From IMG/VR virus record IMGVR_UViG_3300045988_168456: DNA of 49,481 nt, one strand, 5' to 3'. Both the position numbers and the translations under genes were made by a program. Numbering within the stretch: the first letter of the stretch is position 1; each line of letters starts with the position of its first letter. The notes below the pieces were generated by a model. It was not told the DNA's origin. It was given only the letters and a program-made list of their open reading frames with translations, and searched no databases. This stretch comes from a virus. Below, piece by piece: positions 13,633 through 37,070 of the stretch.

Positions 13633-13989
13633 ATGAAAATTAACAGAAATTATCATTTTGTCCTGACAGTTCTGGACAGCGAGAAAATTGTAGCAGGAGA
13701 AATAAGCATTGAAAATAATGCAGTATCGGGCGAGAGAATATTTGCCAGCGAATGCCACTACTATGCCGAGAAAAATATTATTGAGTGCATTAAAGATGCA
13801 GCCAAGAGAGATGAACTGGGCGAATATTATAATCACACTTATTGCATTTACAAAGAGGACAAGCCGAAAAAAGAAATTACTGAGCGCGAAGAAGGCGACA
13901 AGAAAATCACAGAGACAAGAGAAATACCCGGAAAAGCTATGCTACTCGAAATAATAACAGTAGACGAGTGTGGGGTGACTATCCGATAA
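13633..13989 (+). CDS. Early protein, unknown function
   Basis: 118-aa ORF with an ATG start. First rightward gene after the control region. The overlapping alternative frame 13709..13954 cannot be excluded. Confidence 0.5.
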   Translation: MKINRNYHFVLTVLDSEKIVAGEISIENNAVSGERIFASECHYYAEKNIIECIKDAAKRDELGEYYNHTYCIYKEDKPKKEITEREEGDKKITETREIPGKAMLLEIITVDECGVTIR

Positions 13990-14127
13990 GGATAGTCACA
14001 GCCCTCTCGGGAGAACTCTACACAAGAGACGGCAGTCCGACTCTGCCGGAGGGCACAATTGGCAATATTGCTGAGAGAATTAAAATAAACAGTAATATAA
14101 ACAAGAGAATAACGGGAGAATACAGTT

Positions 14128-14478
14128 ATGACAAAAAACTATTACAGGAGTGATTACTCCGACAAACAGTGGAAAGCCTTAATTGACAAGGCCACGGAAC
14201 TGGGTTGCCAGATAACCTATAGCAAATACGGCAACATAGTAACAATTGACAGCACAGACCGAGAGAATTCTATTCTTAAATCGGTTGGTGCAGGAGAAGA
14301 ATATAGAGTTATGTGGGCAGACCATATCCATAACATGCTGCAGGAGAGCACGGACTTAAGAACGTGGAAAGTACAGCCTAAGAGATACCACCGCAGCTAT
14401 TGTCCGACTATCTGCAGGAGTCAGAAGTCAGCAGAACATGAGCAGGAGCGTCTCGAGAGAAATTACAAACTGATATGA
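14128..14478 (+). CDS. Early protein, unknown function
   Basis: 116-aa ORF with an ATG start. GC is clearly above the genome average (about 47% in a hand-counted 60-nt sample). Confidence 0.5.
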   Translation: MTKNYYRSDYSDKQWKALIDKATELGCQITYSKYGNIVTIDSTDRENSILKSVGAGEEYRVMWADHIHNMLQESTDLRTWKVQPKRYHRSYCPTICRSQKSAEHEQERLERNYKLI

Positions 14479-14487
14479 AGCAAGCAT

Positions 14488-14730
14488 GTGAAAAATATAA
14501 AGCTATTCAAGAGAAATAACCAATACTATTTAACAAATATGGAAACAACAGTTTTTTATGTAGCAATTGCCTATGATGACGGCATTTTCAATCCTACAGT
14601 TGTAGAGAAGTTTGATAATAAAGCAGACGCAGACAGTTATGCAGCTCTTATGTGTCGTTCAAAGCAACGCCGGTACATTGTGCTTAAGCAAGTAACACAA
14701 TGGGACAGCATTTCTCGAAAAAATGCATGA
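14488..14730 (+). CDS. Early protein, unknown function (GTG at 14488, or ATG at 14539)
   Basis: 80-aa ORF, co-directional with and closely spaced after 14128..14478. Confidence 0.45.
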   Translation: MKNIKLFKRNNQYYLTNMETTVFYVAIAYDDGIFNPTVVEKFDNKADADSYAALMCRSKQRRYIVLKQVTQWDSISRKNA

Positions 14731-14989
14731 CCTTAGCTGCTGCGGATAGAAATGATATTCGTGGGACAGTATCAAGCGAAGCGGATTTTAGGAGCGACAT
14801 CTACAGCGACGCTAAGTTTAACCTAATTGATAAAAATTTACAGTAATATGGTAACAGTAAAATTTTCAACGCATAGAGCGGAAACACTATTTTTGATGCC
14901 AACTATTGCGATAAAGCAATACAATTCAGAAACAGCAATAAGATTTGTATTTTTACGCGGTGTATTTAATATAGAAATAGACAAGTATT

Positions 14990-15247
14990 ATGGCAAAAAG
15001 TGAAATATTTGTAATAGCTTATAGGCTTGAAGCTTATAATAATTATGATGCCTTAGACGGCTTCATGGAAGCAATTTGCGATTATGCAATAGTATCTAAA
15101 GAAACAGATTACGCGCTTACAGTAGTAGCATCTTCAGAAGCCTTAAGCACGTCAAGATTGGCAAATACGGCTTATAAATATTTTGGCAAAGAAGGGTATA
15201 CTATAAGTACTCTCGGGCTTTTAGGGCCGTTTAAGAAATTCAATTAA
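14990..15247 (+). CDS. Early protein, unknown function
   Basis: 85-aa ORF with an ATG start. Confidence 0.45.
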   Translation: MAKSEIFVIAYRLEAYNNYDALDGFMEAICDYAIVSKETDYALTVVASSEALSTSRLANTAYKYFGKEGYTISTLGLLGPFKKFN

Positions 15248-15372
15248 TATTCTTTAACATAAAACTTAGAAAAAAAAGTTCCAAAGCGGCTTAATAATTC
15301 AAAAAAATATAGTACATTAGCACTATCATAATTAATACATATTATTTAATAACAATTTAAAATTACAGTATT

Positions 15373-16488
15373 ATGGCAACAAAGAAATTTTCACAGATGA
15401 CAACGAAGAAACTGAATGCTCTTTTGGCAACAGCAAGTGACGAAGACAAAAAGGCTATTGAAGCCGTACTTACAGCTCGTGAACAAGCTACTAAACCAGC
15501 TGCAGAAGAGATTTCTATACCTACGCCGGGCCCGGTTGAAGATGTACTAATAAACGAAGTTAGTCCTGAAGAAGAAGCAGCTATTAAAGCAGCTGAAGAA
15601 AATGGCGGAATCAATCCTATGTATAACGGTAGTAAATCAACTTTGGAAAAGAAGCCGAAAATGACCGACGAGGAACGCCATGCATTGGCTGAAGAACTGA
15701 AGAAGAATGTTAATCATCGTTGTCAAGCAGTTCCTTTCAATACTGCAGAATGGGTTGATGGTTATATAGCTGGAGTAATTGAAGAAAAGCGCAGTGGCAA
15801 AATATTATACGCAATCAAGACAGATGATGGGCGCCGTATTGTAAAAGTACACGACAGCAACCTTATTCGTATCTTAGATGAAGTAATTGAGCCGGAAAAG
15901 AAAACCCGTACGCGTAAAGCAAAAGACCCAGCAGACGAAGTTGAATGGACACCTGAAGCAATAGCTGAAGAAATTAACGAAGTTATTGGCAATGTTGGTA
16001 AAACCATAGAACTTGAAAAATACCGCACAACAGATGAGAATGGTGAAGAACATGCCGAAGTAATAATAGGCCGTATTGTGGCAATTGTTCCTGACAAACG
16101 AGCTAAGCGACTACTTTATCGTATTTCAGTTCCTGCACCTGTTGAAGGTAATCCGCTTGCAACAAAGACTATGCATAAAGTTGTAAAAGCTGAAGGCATT
16201 AAAATTGCTGAAGAATTTGATAAAGAAGGCGCACAGCTTAATGCTAAGTATACGGAACGTCGTGAGGCTGCTGCTGCTCGCACTCCGCTTACTCCGCAAG
16301 ACCGTTACATACGCTGTGAGGAAAATGTGAAAAAAGCGGAAGAAAAATTGCAAAAAGCACAGGAAGAACTGGAAGCTAAAAAGAAACAGCTTGAAGATGC
16401 AAAGAAAGAGCTGGATGAGTATCTTGCCAGTCAGGCACAAGAAAGCTCAGCTGCTGGAGTTTCAGAAGAGGTAGACCTTCTTGCGTAA
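15373..16488 (+). CDS. Acidic, Lys-rich early protein with a C-terminal coiled coil
   Basis: 371-aa ORF followed by a canonical intrinsic terminator. EEKLQKAQEELEAKKKQLEDAKKELDE near the C-terminus. No family recognised. Confidence 0.65.
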   Translation: MATKKFSQMTTKKLNALLATASDEDKKAIEAVLTAREQATKPAAEEISIPTPGPVEDVLINEVSPEEEAAIKAAEENGGINPMYNGSKSTLEKKPKMTDEERHALAEELKKNVNHRCQAVPFNTAEWVDGYIAGVIEEKRSGKILYAIKTDDGRRIVKVHDSNLIRILDEVIEPEKKTRTRKAKDPADEVEWTPEAIAEEINEVIGNVGKTIELEKYRTTDENGEEHAEVIIGRIVAIVPDKRAKRLLYRISVPAPVEGNPLATKTMHKVVKAEGIKIAEEFDKEGAQLNAKYTERREAAAARTPLTPQDRYIRCEENVKKAEEKLQKAQEELEAKKKQLEDAKKELDEYLASQAQESSAAGVSEEVDLLA

Positions 16489-17317
16489 ACTGCTATAGAT
16501 AAATTTCTGTTAAACACCTCGAAGAAAGCTGCTCTGTGAAGAGCGGCTTTTCTTTTATGCCGTATATTTAATTGATATACGGTATTTTTTATATAACAGT
16601 TTTATATGTCAAAATATGTAAACTCATAGAAACATGCTTCTTTCGCGTTCTAAGGAACTTTCATATCTGAGATATACTATAATATAGGTTAACTCAATTC
16701 GATGCGATAGAGGTTAAAAGAAGTATATCTATCAATATATATTATGACTTCATAAGAATATATTAATGCATAGACTTTCCTGAACTTTAAGTTACCAAGC
16801 AGTTATATAAATAGCTGTTAAATTTATGACTAAAAAGTTGACTCATTTTCGCGCGTTCTAGGACACTTTTATTTGAGAGTCATAGGAATTATCATTCTCA
16901 AAAAGAAATGATGAGAGAATGAATGAAAATAATGAAATTTCATATATCTCCAAGGCATTTAGAGTTCTATATTTTTATATTAAAGCTGCAATAAACCAGT
17001 AAAAATTTTTATGTTAAAGCTTGTAAAACAGTAATTCGTATTAAGATTATTATGTATTTTAGCTTATAAGAGAATAAAGTAAAACTGTTAAAAAATGTTA
17101 CATGCTAGAATACATAAAAGCTGCATGACCGCTATAATTAAGCAGTTTATGCTTAAGCACATAAAACACATATACAGTATGTTACGTAGCAATTGTCCAC
17201 ACTGGACTCCATACGTGGTACAGGAAATAGCCGAGAGAATATTTGCCACAATTGGACAGGAGAATATCACAAGCCTCTAACAAGAGAAATGTTGAACAAA
17301 AATAAACAAGAGAATAT
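16489..17317. promoter_or_regulatory. 0.8-kb largely non-coding region with two TTCGCG(CG)TTCTA(A)GGA boxes
   Basis: Boxes at 16642-16656 and 16848-16863, with similar flanks (ACTCAT upstream, TGAGA downstream). Only short doubtful ORFs are present (17088..17270 minus, 17095..17280 plus). Confidence 0.6.
16525..16556 (+). terminator. Rho-independent terminator
   Basis: aaagctgctc (16525-16534), loop tgtgaa, gagcggcttt (16541-16550). A 10-bp stem with one G-U pair, followed by tctttt. Confidence 0.8.
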
Positions 17318-17794
17318 ATGAGTGGCTTTGTATTAGATTATAGCAAAAAGCAAATATTACAGATAACAAATGATGCTTTTTACTATTTATATTATGGCGA
17401 AGAGCCGTTAGATGAAGACAATTTAGAAGAAGCCAATGAGGTATCTGAAATGTTTTCCAATAATTTTTATATTGAAGACGATTGGAAAATAGTTGATAAT
17501 TCAGACCTTATAGAATGCACATTTATTCCGTATATTGAAGACCGAGCTGATTATGATGAATATGAGGACCTTACCAAACATATTCAACAGCAAATAAAAT
17601 GGCTTGATGCAAATCATATTAGAGTATGGTGGTTTAACAACCAAACTGGAACGAGAGAATTACGCGGTGATTTTAAAGTTTACATTGATAAGTATGGGTA
17701 TAAATGTTTTCACACTGGTAATCAAGATGAAAGTTTTATAACAGGAAAAATGAGTTTATATTTTTTGAAGAATTTTAAAAAGCATATAGCTTAA
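17318..17794 (+). CDS. Acidic hypothetical protein
   Basis: 158-aa ORF with an ATG start, preceded by ataaacaagagaata, which also precedes ATG 14128. Confidence 0.55.
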   Translation: MSGFVLDYSKKQILQITNDAFYYLYYGEEPLDEDNLEEANEVSEMFSNNFYIEDDWKIVDNSDLIECTFIPYIEDRADYDEYEDLTKHIQQQIKWLDANHIRVWWFNNQTGTRELRGDFKVYIDKYGYKCFHTGNQDESFITGKMSLYFLKNFKKHIA

Positions 17795-17816: not shown

Positions 17817-17846
17817 AGCAGACTACAGAAAAGTAGTCTGCTTTTT
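17817..17846. terminator. Bidirectional intrinsic terminator between convergent genes
   Basis: agcagactac (17817-17826), loop agaaaa, gtagtctgct (17833-17842). A perfect 10-bp stem flanked by an A-run and a T-run. Sits between 17318..17794 (+) and 17845..18567 (-). Confidence 0.8.
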
Positions 17847-18567
17847 ACATTAAGTTTTCATCTTCTTCTACAACAAGAGAATAGCCAATTCCTCGTATAG
17901 TTTCTATTACTATTCTACTATCCATTTTAAGCATATTTCGCAGCATACATATATGGACATCTAAGCTACGTTTATTAAAGTAGTTATCATCAGTCCATAT
18001 TTGTTGCATGAGTATTTTCTTAGGTAACGTTTCATTTTTATAAGCACACAATAAAGCAAGAACTTGACTTTGTTTATTATTAAGCTGTGTTTTTACATTG
18101 CCTATAGTAAGAATTTTGTTTATAGTATTAAACATATAATCACCTATCTTATAAGATGGCTCTATACCTCTCACTTGCACACCACATCTTTTTAGAACAG
18201 CTTTTATTCTTCTTATAAGTTCTTCAATATTGTATGGCCTTATAATATAATCATCTACACCTTCATCAAACGCTTCAATAACATACTCATATCGAGCTTT
18301 ATCTGATACCATTATTATAGGTATTTTATTATCCGATTTGCGTAAAAATTTTAGCGGCTTTAACATCATAGAGGTATCTGTTGTTTTATAATGGCTTAGT
18401 ATACATAAATCATAGTTTTTTTCTTTGATTTTATCCAATATATTATTCTCAGTTGATGTTATTACTTGAAAGCCGTTATACACCAAGTAATCTACCATAA
18501 TTTTACAATCTTCATCTTGGTATATTAAAATTCTCGGTAATGCTAATTTTGTATTATTATCTTTCAT
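17845..18567 (-). CDS. Atypical OmpR/PhoB-family response regulator (receiver plus winged-helix domain; phospho-acceptor Asp replaced by Ser)
   Basis: Receiver-like RILIYQDED...YDLCILSH...IPIIMVSD...GVDDYIIRPY. C-terminal trans_reg_C pattern LNNKQSQVLALL...RSLDVHICMLRNML...IETIRGIGYSL. Confidence 0.85.
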   Translation of the reverse strand: MKDNNTKLALPRILIYQDEDCKIMVDYLVYNGFQVITSTENNILDKIKEKNYDLCILSHYKTTDTSMMLKPLKFLRKSDNKIPIIMVSDKARYEYVIEAFDEGVDDYIIRPYNIEELIRRIKAVLKRCGVQVRGIEPSYKIGDYMFNTINKILTIGNVKTQLNNKQSQVLALLCAYKNETLPKKILMQQIWTDDNYFNKRSLDVHICMLRNMLKMDSRIVIETIRGIGYSLVVEEDENLM

Positions 18568-19727: not shown

Positions 19728-19916
19728 TTATTTTATTACAGTTTGTTGACTTATAACTTCTTTTATAGGGCTTTTTATTTCTTGTATGTTACTTAACATG
19801 TTCGCTATACTAAATGGAGGACATGCCATATAAACATCAGCCAATGCATCAACTAACTCATCTTTGCTTAGTTTCTGCAAATTGCTCTTTATTATCTCTC
19901 TTATCGGATTGTTCAT
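19728..19916 (-). CDS. Small hypothetical protein
   Basis: 62-aa ORF with an ATG start. Overlaps the 3' end of 19858..20262. Confidence 0.4.
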   Translation of the reverse strand: MNNPIREIIKSNLQKLSKDELVDALADVYMACPPFSIANMLSNIQEIKSPIKEVISQQTVIK

Positions 19917-20262
19917 CTTTGATAATATCTTTTTGGCCTTCTTCTGCTTGCTTTAATTCAACATAAGTCCTATGAAAAGCTTCATCACCTATTCCTTTAA
20001 TAAAAGTTCTAAGTGTAGAAGGATATTCGCTTGTATTTATAGTCTTATCGACTACTTTCGCATAAAGAGCGGCAAGAGTTTTAGGCCCAAATACCTTTTT
20101 CTCCTGTAATCTTTCAATAGGGCCTCTTTTGAATTGAACATAAGGATTTTCATTCATAATTTTTGCACGTGTTAAATACAAATCTTCAATCAAGAATTTA
20201 ATATTCTTTTCAAATTGAGGCATTTGAATAACATCAATAACTTTTAATTCAGATACTTTCAT
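19858..20262 (-). CDS. Hypothetical protein
   Basis: 134-aa ORF with an ATG start. Confidence 0.5.
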   Translation of the reverse strand: MKVSELKVIDVIQMPQFEKNIKFLIEDLYLTRAKIMNENPYVQFKRGPIERLQEKKVFGPKTLAALYAKVVDKTINTSEYPSTLRTFIKGIGDEAFHRTYVELKQAEEGQKDIIKDEQSDKRDNKEQFAETKQR

Positions 20263-20295: not shown

Positions 20296-20538
20296 TCAAT
20301 TTTTCCCATGATTATTCCAAAGTTTAACTAATTGTTTTTCTGTATATGGTTCTTTTATACCCATATTTGCATTCACATACCATATTCCTATGGAATCAAT
20401 AAGTATGAATCTATTTACATCTATCCGGTATATCTCATTATCGGGGTATGCTTCCCTTACAGCAGTTGTACAGTCTCCATTTGTATAGCAGCTTGTTAGT
20501 ATAAGCGATACTAATAAAAGCAATAAAAATTTCTTCAT
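20296..20538 (-). CDS. Small lipoprotein (80 aa from ATG 20538)
   Basis: MKKFLLLLLVSLILTSC is a signal peptide with a canonical L-T-S-C lipobox. The ATG lies 2 nt after the upstream TAA. Confidence 0.6.
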   Translation of the reverse strand: MKKFLLLLLVSLILTSCYTNGDCTTAVREAYPDNEIYRIDVNRFILIDSIGIWYVNANMGIKEPYTEKQLVKLWNNHGKN

Positions 20539-20540
20539 AT

Positions 20541-20921
20541 TTACTCCTCCCACTCGATTTTAATTGTACCTAAATACGATGGTGGACAATTACTTACGGC
20601 TTCTTCTCTGTTAGGAAATACTCCAACAGTTAATGTATCTCCATTATTATTTTTGCACAAGTTAACCCACCCCTCTTTCTTTTCGGGGAGCATCATAAGG
20701 TCAGTACCCTGTGTTTCATAAATTCTGGCTTTTCCATCTTTATCACATGCACTAATCATTTCTTCACCATTCTCACATTCTATAAGAGCAACAATGGGAT
20801 ATTCCCAGTTTCTATCAAAGCAAATAATCCTTGCCTTTCTACCATCTCTCGTGCAGACTGGTTTGCCTGCTTTGGCTGCTTCAAGGTCAAAGGGTCTTAG
20901 ATTTAATTTCTTTTCTTTCAT
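20541..20921 (-). CDS. Hypothetical protein (conserved phage-type N-terminus LRPFDLEAAKAGKPVCTRDGRKARI)
   Basis: The track ORF starts at TTG 20942. The first ATG is at 20921 (MKEKKLNLRPF). Confidence 0.55.
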   Translation of the reverse strand: MKEKKLNLRPFDLEAAKAGKPVCTRDGRKARIICFDRNWEYPIVALIECENGEEMISACDKDGKARIYETQGTDLMMLPEKKEGWVNLCKNNNGDTLTVGVFPNREEAVSNCPPSYLGTIKIEWEE

Positions 20922-20948
20922 ATTTCTTACAAAAATTATCAATGTTAA

Positions 20949-22513: not shown

Positions 22514-23008
22514 TTAGTATGACCCAGTAGACCCGAGTGCTCCATCACCACGCTCAGATGGACGACTGAAAAGCTCTGATTCAGGAACTTCTTCAAGGTC
22601 TTCGTACGATACAGGTACGAGAATAAATTGTGCTATTTTCATACCCGGTTTGATAAGCACTTTAGCTCTACCTATATTTATAAGATGTATATGAATTTCA
22701 CCTTGGTAATCTTCATCTACAATCTTTGCTCCAAGGATAACAATACTCTCAAATGCTTCTGGCTTTGGCGTTCTATTAGCTCCAAGGCAAGCCCATTTAG
22801 AAGTTACAACTCCTGATTTATCAGAAGCCATGAGCATATATCCTTCTGGAATTTCCATCTTAATGCCAGACGGTATTAAAATGTCAGTTCCTGGATTTAG
22901 TATAAAACCTTTATTATCACCAAAATTAGGAACAAAAAAATCAATTCCTGCAGCTTTACCTGTTCCTCTCATTGGAGACTTTACATCTCTTACTTTCGAA
23001 TATTTCAT
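22514..23008 (-). CDS. dut: Trimeric dUTPase-family protein
   Basis: AAGIDFF (motif 1), IVDEDYQGEIHI (motif 3), KIAQFIL (motif 4), RGDGALGSTGSY (motif 5). Confidence 0.85.
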   Translation of the reverse strand: MKYSKVRDVKSPMRGTGKAAGIDFFVPNFGDNKGFILNPGTDILIPSGIKMEIPEGYMLMASDKSGVVTSKWACLGANRTPKPEAFESIVILGAKIVDEDYQGEIHIHLINIGRAKVLIKPGMKIAQFILVPVSYEDLEEVPESELFSRPSERGDGALGSTGSY

Positions 23009-23010
23009 AT

Positions 23011-23481
23011 TTACTTATGATTTATAGTTAAAATGTGAATAAGATTTTGTATATACTTGTAGTCTTTGACTCTGCCGAGTTTCATTTTGTCTATAAGCGC
23101 ATATTCTACTTTTTGCACACCTATTATATGATGCTTCGCATGTTTCTTATCTTGCAATGAAAGTCTTACTTCCATATCAAGAATAGTATCATAGTCTTGT
23201 GTATTGTCTACTATGGCATTGATTTTAATGCCATCTATAAAGAAAGAATAGCATAGGCTTTCATAGTTATCATTCTTAAGACCTGCTAAAAACTAAAGTT
23301 CTGAAAGCTTATTTCTCTGTTCTTCTGTCAGGTGAAAGACTTTTATGTCTACATCTTGCGGGGCAAAATTAGACGGAACTCCAAGTAAGGCTAAAGCAAC
23401 TGTGCCTGTTACCATATACTCGATTTTGTTTGCAGCACAAAACTCATTAAGCTTAAACAATATTTCTGTATTTACGTTCAT
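23011..23481 (-). CDS. Nucleotidyltransferase-fold protein interrupted by one in-frame TAG (62 codons, TAG, 93 codons)
   Basis: The track ORF 23293..23481 contains VTGTVALALLG...QDVDIKV. The same frame stays open after TAG (23295-23293) down to TAA at 23013-23011, 2 nt before the dut ATG. I verified this codon by codon. Confidence 0.6.
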
Positions 23482-36527: not shown

Positions 36528-37070
36528 TCACACAAATTTTTCCCAATCCAACTTAATTGCTTTTCCAATTGCATCAGCAGTCCATCTACAGAAAATCATG
36601 CCTTCATACCCATCTGGGTCATTAGCAATTTTATAAGCATATTTCAAACATGCTGCTTCATCTTTTAAAGGGTCTGGGTATAAATCCGCATAAGCCATAT
36701 TAGCCGCATAAGTAACATCACCAATTGTCACTTTATCCGAAATGCTTAACCCTAAACTTTCCATAGATTTTTTGACTTGGCTTGTAGTCCAGGAATGCTG
36801 TTGGCCATTAGCATTTACCATTATTTTACTTACATGCTCTGCAAGTGCATCTGTGAAATGATAGCCATGTTTTTTGACATATTCTGAATACCCTTTTGCA
36901 GACATAAGAGCATTAGCTGTTTGTTCATAAGGCAAATCAAATTTAACCTTATGCTCACCATGAGCAGTAGCTATTTTACTTTCTACTATTACTTCTTCAT
37001 CTTCATGTTCTTTATTATAGTGGTCACATGAATGATGCTTTACTATAATATATTTTAATCTGTGTCCCAT
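36528..37070 (-). CDS. Hypothetical protein
   Basis: 180-aa ORF between the fibre and lysis modules. Confidence 0.5.
   Translation of the reverse strand: MGHRLKYIIVKHHSCDHYNKEHEDEEVIVESKIATAHGEHKVKFDLPYEQTANALMSAKGYSEYVKKHGYHFTDALAEHVSKIMVNANGQQHSWTTSQVKKSMESLGLSISDKVTIGDVTYAANMAYADLYPDPLKDEAACLKYAYKIANDPDGYEGMIFCRWTADAIGKAIKLDWEKFV

Follow-up and report, generated by a model that had tools for sequence, protein, structure and literature searches.

A lone in-frame amber codon in a phage nucleotidyltransferase-fold gene is probably a recent nonsense mutation

The IMG/VR virus record IMGVR_UViG_3300045988_168456 is a stretch of 49,481 nucleotides (the whole of which we refer to as the window) with a GC content of 33% and about 62-65 open reading frames (ORFs). 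As its relatives assemble as contigs of ~48-53 kb, the window represents essentially a whole phage genome of ~49.5 kb. On its minus strand, at 23011..23481, lies a gene of 156 codons plus a TAA terminator that encodes a predicted nucleotidyltransferase (NTase)-fold protein and is broken at codon 63 by an in-frame TAG; that this is one gene follows from its translation, its homologues and a structural model. An earlier annotation made from the sequence alone, referred to here as the original prediction, had left two options for this TAG, namely that it is decoded or read through, or that the gene is a very recent nonsense pseudogene. The evidence presented below favors the second option, chiefly because near-identical genomes carry CAG at this codon, and does not support the first.

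Starting from the ATG at 23481, the frame runs through 62 sense codons to the TAG at 23295-23293 and then through 93 more to the TAA at 23013-23011, exactly as had been predicted; translation of 23481..23011 on the minus strand yields MNVNTEILF...KLSEL, TAG, FLAGLKNDNY...LTINHK, TAA. The N-terminal fragment of 62 codons (23296..23481, minus strand), which would be the sole product under the standard code, retains helix 1, strand 1, G26-T27 and D43-x-D45. The distal 93 codons (23014..23292, minus strand) would remain untranslated if the TAG terminates, and they encode the strands at residues 77-123, together with the invariant K86, N88, I90 and D92, and the C-terminal helices. We computed the probability of a 93-codon open run arising by chance at the base composition of the window to be ~4e-4, in agreement with the initial estimate of less than 1e-3. 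It had also been noted that the distal half has no in-frame start near its 5′ end, and indeed the first ATG, GTG or TTG after the TAG is the ATG at 23175. This internal in-frame ATG opens an ORF of 54 codons (23011..23175, minus strand) that gene callers annotate on its own in the amber strain; no Shine-Dalgarno-like sequence was found upstream of it, and it is probably not a real product. The downstream dUTPase gene (22514..23008, minus strand; PF00692) starts at the ATG at 23008, 2 nt beyond the NTase terminator, in a TAA-AT-ATG arrangement. Of three other junctions for which the same packing had been proposed, the one at 20541 has it, such that the junction TAAATATG (stop, AT, start) is identical at 23005-23013 and 20535-20543, whereas those at 36528 and 38641 read TGATATG, with a single spacer base (TGA-T-ATG).

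A search with the fused protein returned 659 homologues, nearly all of them 151-170 aa in length and unbroken across codon 63. The original prediction had proposed the contiguity of homologues as a check, and they proved to be contiguous over the TAG site, with Gln at the aligned position. In an alignment of 29 homologues Q63 is nearly invariant, and full invariance is seen at T25, G26, T27, D43, D45, K86, N88, I90 and D92. In the nucleotide sequences of 15 family loci, the codon at position 63 is CAG or CAA in every one. The ratio of nonsynonymous to synonymous substitution rates (dN/dS) was 0.13 in codons 1-62 against 0.35 in codons 64-156, and the NTase gene is under purifying selection across the family. 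An AlphaFold model predicts a single α/β domain (pLDDT 88.4, pTM 0.84) with strands on either side of residue 63, in which the T25-G26-T27 motif is placed at helix 26-32 and D43-V-D45 at strand 44-49. D92 sits directly after strand 85-91, as a third conserved carboxylate on a later strand, and we infer that it has a catalytic role.

The family profile matches the putative nucleotidyltransferase TM1012 over residues 5-142 (E 1.6e-3), and Foldseek places the model near the NTase-like structure 5uvd (E 1.7e-5), the toxin MenT1 (8an5_B, TMq 0.62), LnuA, ANT(2'')-Ia and CCA-adding enzymes. Nothing above threshold was found for the protein in the curated families of Pfam, PHROGs, NCBIfam and PADLOC, and a tblastn search of the protein against GenBank phages returned no match. 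The assignment to the NTase fold, originally made from a minimal signature, is thus upheld by the TM1012 profile match, the Foldseek neighbours and the G-T and D-x-D motifs, and the view that the two halves form one gene is upheld by the contiguous homologues, the single-domain model and the profile match that spans both. The modelled product is a minimal Pol-beta-superfamily NTase-fold protein, with putative nucleotidyl-transfer activity.

To place the origin of the TAG, the window can be compared with its closest strains. Four loci with an intact protein (L002-L005) are 99.6-99.8% identical to the window at the nucleotide level, with one or two base differences within the gene, and all of them carry CAG at codon 63 where the window carries TAG, a difference of C versus T at the first base (a coding-strand C-to-T change, or G-to-A at plus-strand position 23295). 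The window base at this site is private among the eight close relatives that cover the position. The same TAG allele, with flanks 100% identical to the window, is present in the Logan assembly of SRR31145746 (L088), and the contig carrying it has been seen in 2 samples; NCBI, JGI/IMG, Logan and ENA all have records of the 62-aa product. A scaffold considered as a second TAG carrier (L094) was rejected, as it contains an N-gap and has CAG. Approximately nine single-nucleotide polymorphisms private to the strain are scattered over 10.2 kb, all of them transitions: two are synonymous, four non-synonymous, one nonsense and one intergenic, and one falls in a tRNA-like RNA in which a CCA triplet is changed to CUA (considered below). 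Such a profile is typical of mutations so young that selection has not yet removed them. The 31-mers for the two strain alleles are TTTCAGAACTTTAGTTTTTAGCAGGTCTTAA and GCGTGGTACTACTTAAAAACAACGAGAGCAA. A TAG-specific pattern search of JGI metagenomes found no carrier, and IMG/VR searches with patterns allowing either base returned only CAG and CCA alleles. Given that near-identical genomes have CAG and that an independent assembly has the same TAG, the sequence comparison indicates that the TAG is real and that a very recent C-to-T mutation produced it from a Gln codon.

The amber allele is one of several lesions in this gene. In near-identical strains (relatives L063-L065 and L095-L109) the NTase gene has been hit independently at least three further times. 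An allele encoding 43 aa has lost one C from a C4 run at codons 40-41 and was found in 8 contigs from at least 6 samples and several cohorts; another, encoding 124 aa, has lost one A from an A5 run (A5-to-A4); and a 140-aa allele combines a TAC-to-TAA change at Y141 with a 2-nt insertion and occurs in at least 34 blocks of the collection. Within the species-level group, ~117 contigs have full-length alleles and some 35-50 have shortened ones, such that about a quarter are affected. Because near-identical strains carry independent broken alleles, the gene is dispensable within populations. Its recurrent inactivation may mean that it is costly, or a trigger of defence, on some hosts.

We next consider the genetic code of the phage as a whole. 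In 62 ORFs there is a single in-frame TAG against 413 CAA and 168 CAG codons (581 Gln codons), and the NTase gene, which lies in the replication and nucleotide-metabolism block, is its sole carrier among ~62 genes. All other ORFs of the window are intact under translation table 11, with a coding density of 89% and structural genes that are long and unbroken. The proposal that the TAG is decoded as a property of the genome or family was not borne out: when ORF sets under codes that read TAG, TGA or TAA as sense were compared, only the NTase gene needed a sense TAG. Genome-wide recoding was likewise rejected after every long TAG-containing frame had been listed and stop usage counted, as no second gene is affected. 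The stops of the window ORFs comprise 44 TAA and 20 TGA, with TAG in 0 of 64. In 56 related IMG/VR loci, TAG ends 89 of 1534 mechanically picked ORFs (~5.8%), a share on which family-wide avoidance of TAG was rejected; among the TAG-ended genes in these relatives are the DNA polymerase gene of L055 and, in many loci, the gene adjacent to the NTase gene. At this 5.8% background the probability of finding 0 of 64 TAG stops is ~0.03, and the closest relatives that keep the CCA triplet are also without native TAG stops. The few TAG-ended ORFs in these closest relatives have arisen by 1-nt deletion from genes whose stop in the window is TGA. Such deletions, which fall in A runs, push small ORFs into early out-of-frame TAG stops, and the resulting ORFs are the only TAG-ended ones in the closest genomes (window 20296-20553 and 19858-20262; L002 12982-13206; L095 13269-13541). 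A conserved stop and context, as would be expected of programmed read-through, were also looked for in the relatives and none was found, the TAG being private to one strain.

The second private change of relevance lies in a tRNA-like gene that immediately precedes the DNA polymerase gene (31698..31781, minus strand; Rfam tRNA model, 47.6 bits), the one tRNA-like gene that ARAGORN and Rfam find in the window. In the amber strain, CCA is changed to CUA on the RNA strand (G-to-A at plus-strand position 31747): the window and L088 read GTGGTACTAC, and every other copy of this type reads GTGGTACCAC. The CCA is kept in 32 of 32 other matches as well as in L089, L090, L103 and L104, and some of the CCA copies sit in phages that are no more than ~87% identical in the flanking DNA. 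Pattern searches of JGI metagenomes and IMG/VR did not return the CUA allele. The acceptor, D and T arms fit the Rfam model, while the anticodon-arm region has 25 nt where the model expects 13, and a canonical 5-bp stem with a 7-nt loop cannot be drawn in any register. The best RNAfold structure, in which a 6-bp stem containing a mismatch closes an 11-nt loop, is no stabler than shuffled sequence (z-score -0.34). Near-universal tRNA rules call for U33 and a purine at position 37; to serve as an anticodon, CUA would need A33 and C37, and the register that provides U33 and A37 with standard spacing presents ACC in the relatives and ACU in the window. A canonical suppressor tRNA in the window was therefore rejected, as no register yields a canonical anticodon arm. 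The changed C belongs to GTGGTACCAC, a perfect palindrome of 10 nt that is broken by the CUA change; in L015 and L030 a double TA-to-CG change leaves a palindrome, GTGGCGCCAC, in place. Within a hairpin, the CUA change would only turn a G-C pair into G-U.

Genes of the same shape abut the polymerase gene on its upstream side across this group of ~50 kb phages, either singly or in tandem 3 nt apart (L013 252-426, L017 637-719, L025 986-1067, L041 775-856 and L095 1114-1195). They are more conserved than the flanking genes (~87% identical); their acceptor, D and T arms are conserved, and in place of the anticodon arm they have inserts of 32-35 nt that fall into at least four unrelated kinds. ARAGORN gives these genes inconsistent anticodons (ccat, ttg, cca, att and gc). 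In the cultured Bacteroides phage BF503P1, a degenerate tRNA-like sequence can be seen by eye at the equivalent spot, although ARAGORN finds no tRNA there. The kept palindrome, the divergent inserts and the lack of a canonical anticodon arm together point to a non-decoding role for this RNA, so far as sequence comparison can indicate. Two other ideas were discarded: escape from a GGTACC restriction site as the reason for the CUA change is unsupported, as GGTACC remains at 34581, and a joint loss of the NTase and tRNA-like genes was rejected, as the frameshift and ochre strains have normal tRNA-like genes. This family of tRNA-shaped genes next to the polymerase gene, with its expanded and variable anticodon arms, merits separate study.

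Taken together, the most probable explanation, and one we hold with considerable confidence, is that the TAG is a recent and ordinary amber (nonsense) mutation, CAG to TAG at Gln63, in a dispensable accessory NTase-fold gene. Under this explanation a very recent C-to-T change turned the Gln63 codon into TAG, and translation in the standard code, which the genome otherwise uses, would stop once 62 residues have been made. The G-T and D-x-D motifs would be retained in the fragment and the remaining sheet lost; as the fragment is without strands 77-123 (over half of the sheet), the invariant D92 and both C-terminal helices, the enzyme would be inactivated and the truncated product has presumably lost its function. 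The phage would survive without the enzyme because the gene is dispensable. The distal half would still be open for want of time for further decay; since it was inherited from a very recent intact ancestor, its openness is not evidence of read-through. An event of this sort is ordinary.

Several points weigh against this explanation, and most of them bear on the alternative that the phage supplies its own suppressor. That translation terminates at codon 63 is itself an inference; the replaced residue is Gln, which is the reading of UAG in genetic code 15; the absence of TAG among 64 stops fits a genome that tolerates an amber suppressor; and the CUA allele is unique to the amber strain among more than 35 relatives examined. 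A nascent pair of suppressor and amber codon would have the CUA-bearing tRNA-like gene translate the TAG, probably as Gln, such that the full-length enzyme is made. The CUA change occurs only in the amber strain (the window and L088), and because the element shows hardly any other variation, the chance that a random mutation would strike this very base of the CCA is only ~1e-3 to 2e-3; strains with a frameshifted NTase gene keep CCA, as a link between amber and CUA would predict. An E. coli tRNA-Trp with a CUA anticodon is charged with Gln (PMC2965240), which matches the lost residue. In a related version the suppressor came first: in an AT-rich genome without TAG terminators, a point mutation would have turned the phage's tRNA-shaped gene into an amber suppressor, and a first in-frame TAG, at a conserved Gln codon, would then be tolerated or translated, as a first step toward code 15. 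The low GC content and the lack of TAG stops fit the path to recoding that has been proposed, in which stop-codon loss is followed by a suppressor tRNA and then by in-frame stops (bioRxiv 10.1101/2021.08.26.457843). Against both versions, however, the RNA is not a canonical tRNA and would require A33 and C37 in the CUA register, the changed C lies in a palindromic stem, sister inserts are wholly different, and there is one strain with one TAG. Nor is the absence of TAG stops specific to this strain, since close relatives that keep CCA are essentially without native TAG stops too. Because the RNA has no canonical anticodon stem-loop, we regard suppression by a nascent pair as unlikely, and the suppressor-first route as unlikely to the same degree.

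The amber codon might instead be leaky, with a near-cognate host tRNA-Gln, or a suppressor from the host or a co-infecting phage, restoring some protein and rendering the allele nearly neutral. Near-cognate decoding of UAG inserts Gln, among other residues, and since Gln is also the wild-type residue, read-through that inserts it would restore the original protein. The hosts are likely to be Bacteroidaceae, a group that also harbours crAss-like phages with UAG suppressor tRNAs (PMC9523058; bioRxiv 10.1101/2021.08.26.457843). However, the context CTT TAG TTT is no known read-through signal, and frameshift alleles, which lie beyond the reach of any read-through, occur in the population at least as often, so rescue is unnecessary for the amber allele to persist; we consider leakiness improbable. 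It is very unlikely that the TAG is an artefact that sequencing, assembly or the choice of a minority variant introduced into a gene that is really intact. The allele is one base from the intact one and was not found in IMG/VR or JGI metagenome contigs, yet the identical allele is present in the SRR31145746 Logan assembly on a contig seen in 2 samples, its 62-aa product is recorded in four databases, and it is a substitution rather than a homopolymer indel. Recoding of the genome or family with TAG as Gln (code 15) would account for the alignment of TAG with Gln, the 0 of 64 TAG stops and the 33% GC. In recoded phages, though, in-frame stops are found in 26-71% of genes and are concentrated in late ones (bioRxiv 10.1101/2021.08.26.457843), and TAG-recoded phages carry suppressor tRNAs (bioRxiv 10.1101/2021.08.26.457843; PMC9523058). 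Here there is one TAG against 581 Gln codons, in one of ~62 genes and not a late one; it is conserved in no relative, the relatives end genes with TAG, and table 11 already gives a coding density of 89%. This is the least credible of the alternatives, and the recent amber mutation remains the explanation that we prefer.

The genome offers further observations. The DNA polymerase of the window is 69% identical at the protein level to those of the Bacteroides fragilis phages BF503P1 and BF486P2. In a metagenomic scaffold (ERZ28637887 scaffold_3544; L107 1-4042), phage genes are joined to Bacteroides/Phocaeicola-like chromosomal or mobile-element genes, the best match being 93% protein identity to a Phocaeicola metagenome-assembled genome; this scaffold is either a clue to the host or a chimeric assembly. 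Since the polymerase resembles those of B. fragilis phages and this scaffold joins Bacteroides/Phocaeicola-like genes, the host is probably in the Bacteroidaceae. The tetranucleotide GATC is nearly absent, with 2 sites against ~150 expected from composition, and CTAG is depleted, with 45 against ~150 expected, a scarcity which suggests strong selection related to restriction avoidance or methylation. At 20821-20868, within the ORF at 20541-20942 (PF26890, Phage_HP1_YO09-like), nine differences private to the window fall within 48 nt, although the genome is otherwise ~99.7% identical to its relatives; the cluster is suggestive of a small patch of recombination or a hypervariable segment. A gene for an OmpR-type response regulator (17845-18567, minus strand; Response_reg and Trans_reg_C domains) borders the leftward replication block and a small rightward module at 13633-17794.

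Among known systems, the product itself is most like the minimal nucleotidyltransferases TM1012, the MenT toxins, LnuA and ANT(2'')-Ia, with which it shares a G-[ST] ... D-x-D signature, a later Asp and a single domain of ~150-170 aa. The structural similarity is high in Foldseek probability (1.0), with TM-scores of 0.5-0.6, but sequence identity is 10-16%, and the protein stands outside the families of Pfam, NCBIfam, PHROG and PADLOC at threshold.

The code 15 gut phages, which include the crAss-like, Lak, Garnet and Topaz clades (Borges et al., bioRxiv 10.1101/2021.08.26.457843; Peters et al., PMC9523058), resemble this phage in low GC content, a probable Bacteroidales host, TAG at a Gln position and the lack of any TAG-ended gene. 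They differ in that they have many TAGs in late genes, whereas the window has one, located in the early region and private to a strain whose relatives stop at TAG, and in that they have a suppressor tRNA, whereas the window is without a canonical one. A lone in-frame TAG at a Gln codon in a low-GC gut phage is thus insufficient to call code 15.

As summarized in PMC2965240, which cites Yaniv et al. 1974, the E. coli suppressor Su7 (supU) is a tRNA-Trp in which a CCA-to-CUA change yields an amber suppressor that inserts Gln. So far as that account goes, the likeness to the window lies in a CCA-to-CUA change within a tRNA-shaped gene of the same genome as a Gln-to-amber change; the difference is that the phage RNA has no canonical anticodon arm and that its CCA lies in a palindromic stem, outside the U33/R37 register. 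If the two mutations of this strain were functionally linked, they would show a suppressor coming into being, as a counterpart of Su7 carried naturally by a phage and a live instance of a suppressor-first route to code 15, and the strain would then allow a direct test of the origin of stop-codon recoding in phages.

The closest parallels are the classical phage amber mutants and recent nonsense pseudogenes. As in these, a single C-to-T change has converted CAG to TAG with the downstream sequence intact, and the gene is dispensable and frameshifted in sister strains. The nonsense mutation is in itself minor; what it shows is that this small NTase-fold gene is dispensable and repeatedly lost in wild populations of a Bacteroides-type gut phage. 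Classical amber mutants were selected in the laboratory, whereas the allele in the window comes from wild gut-metagenome genomes.

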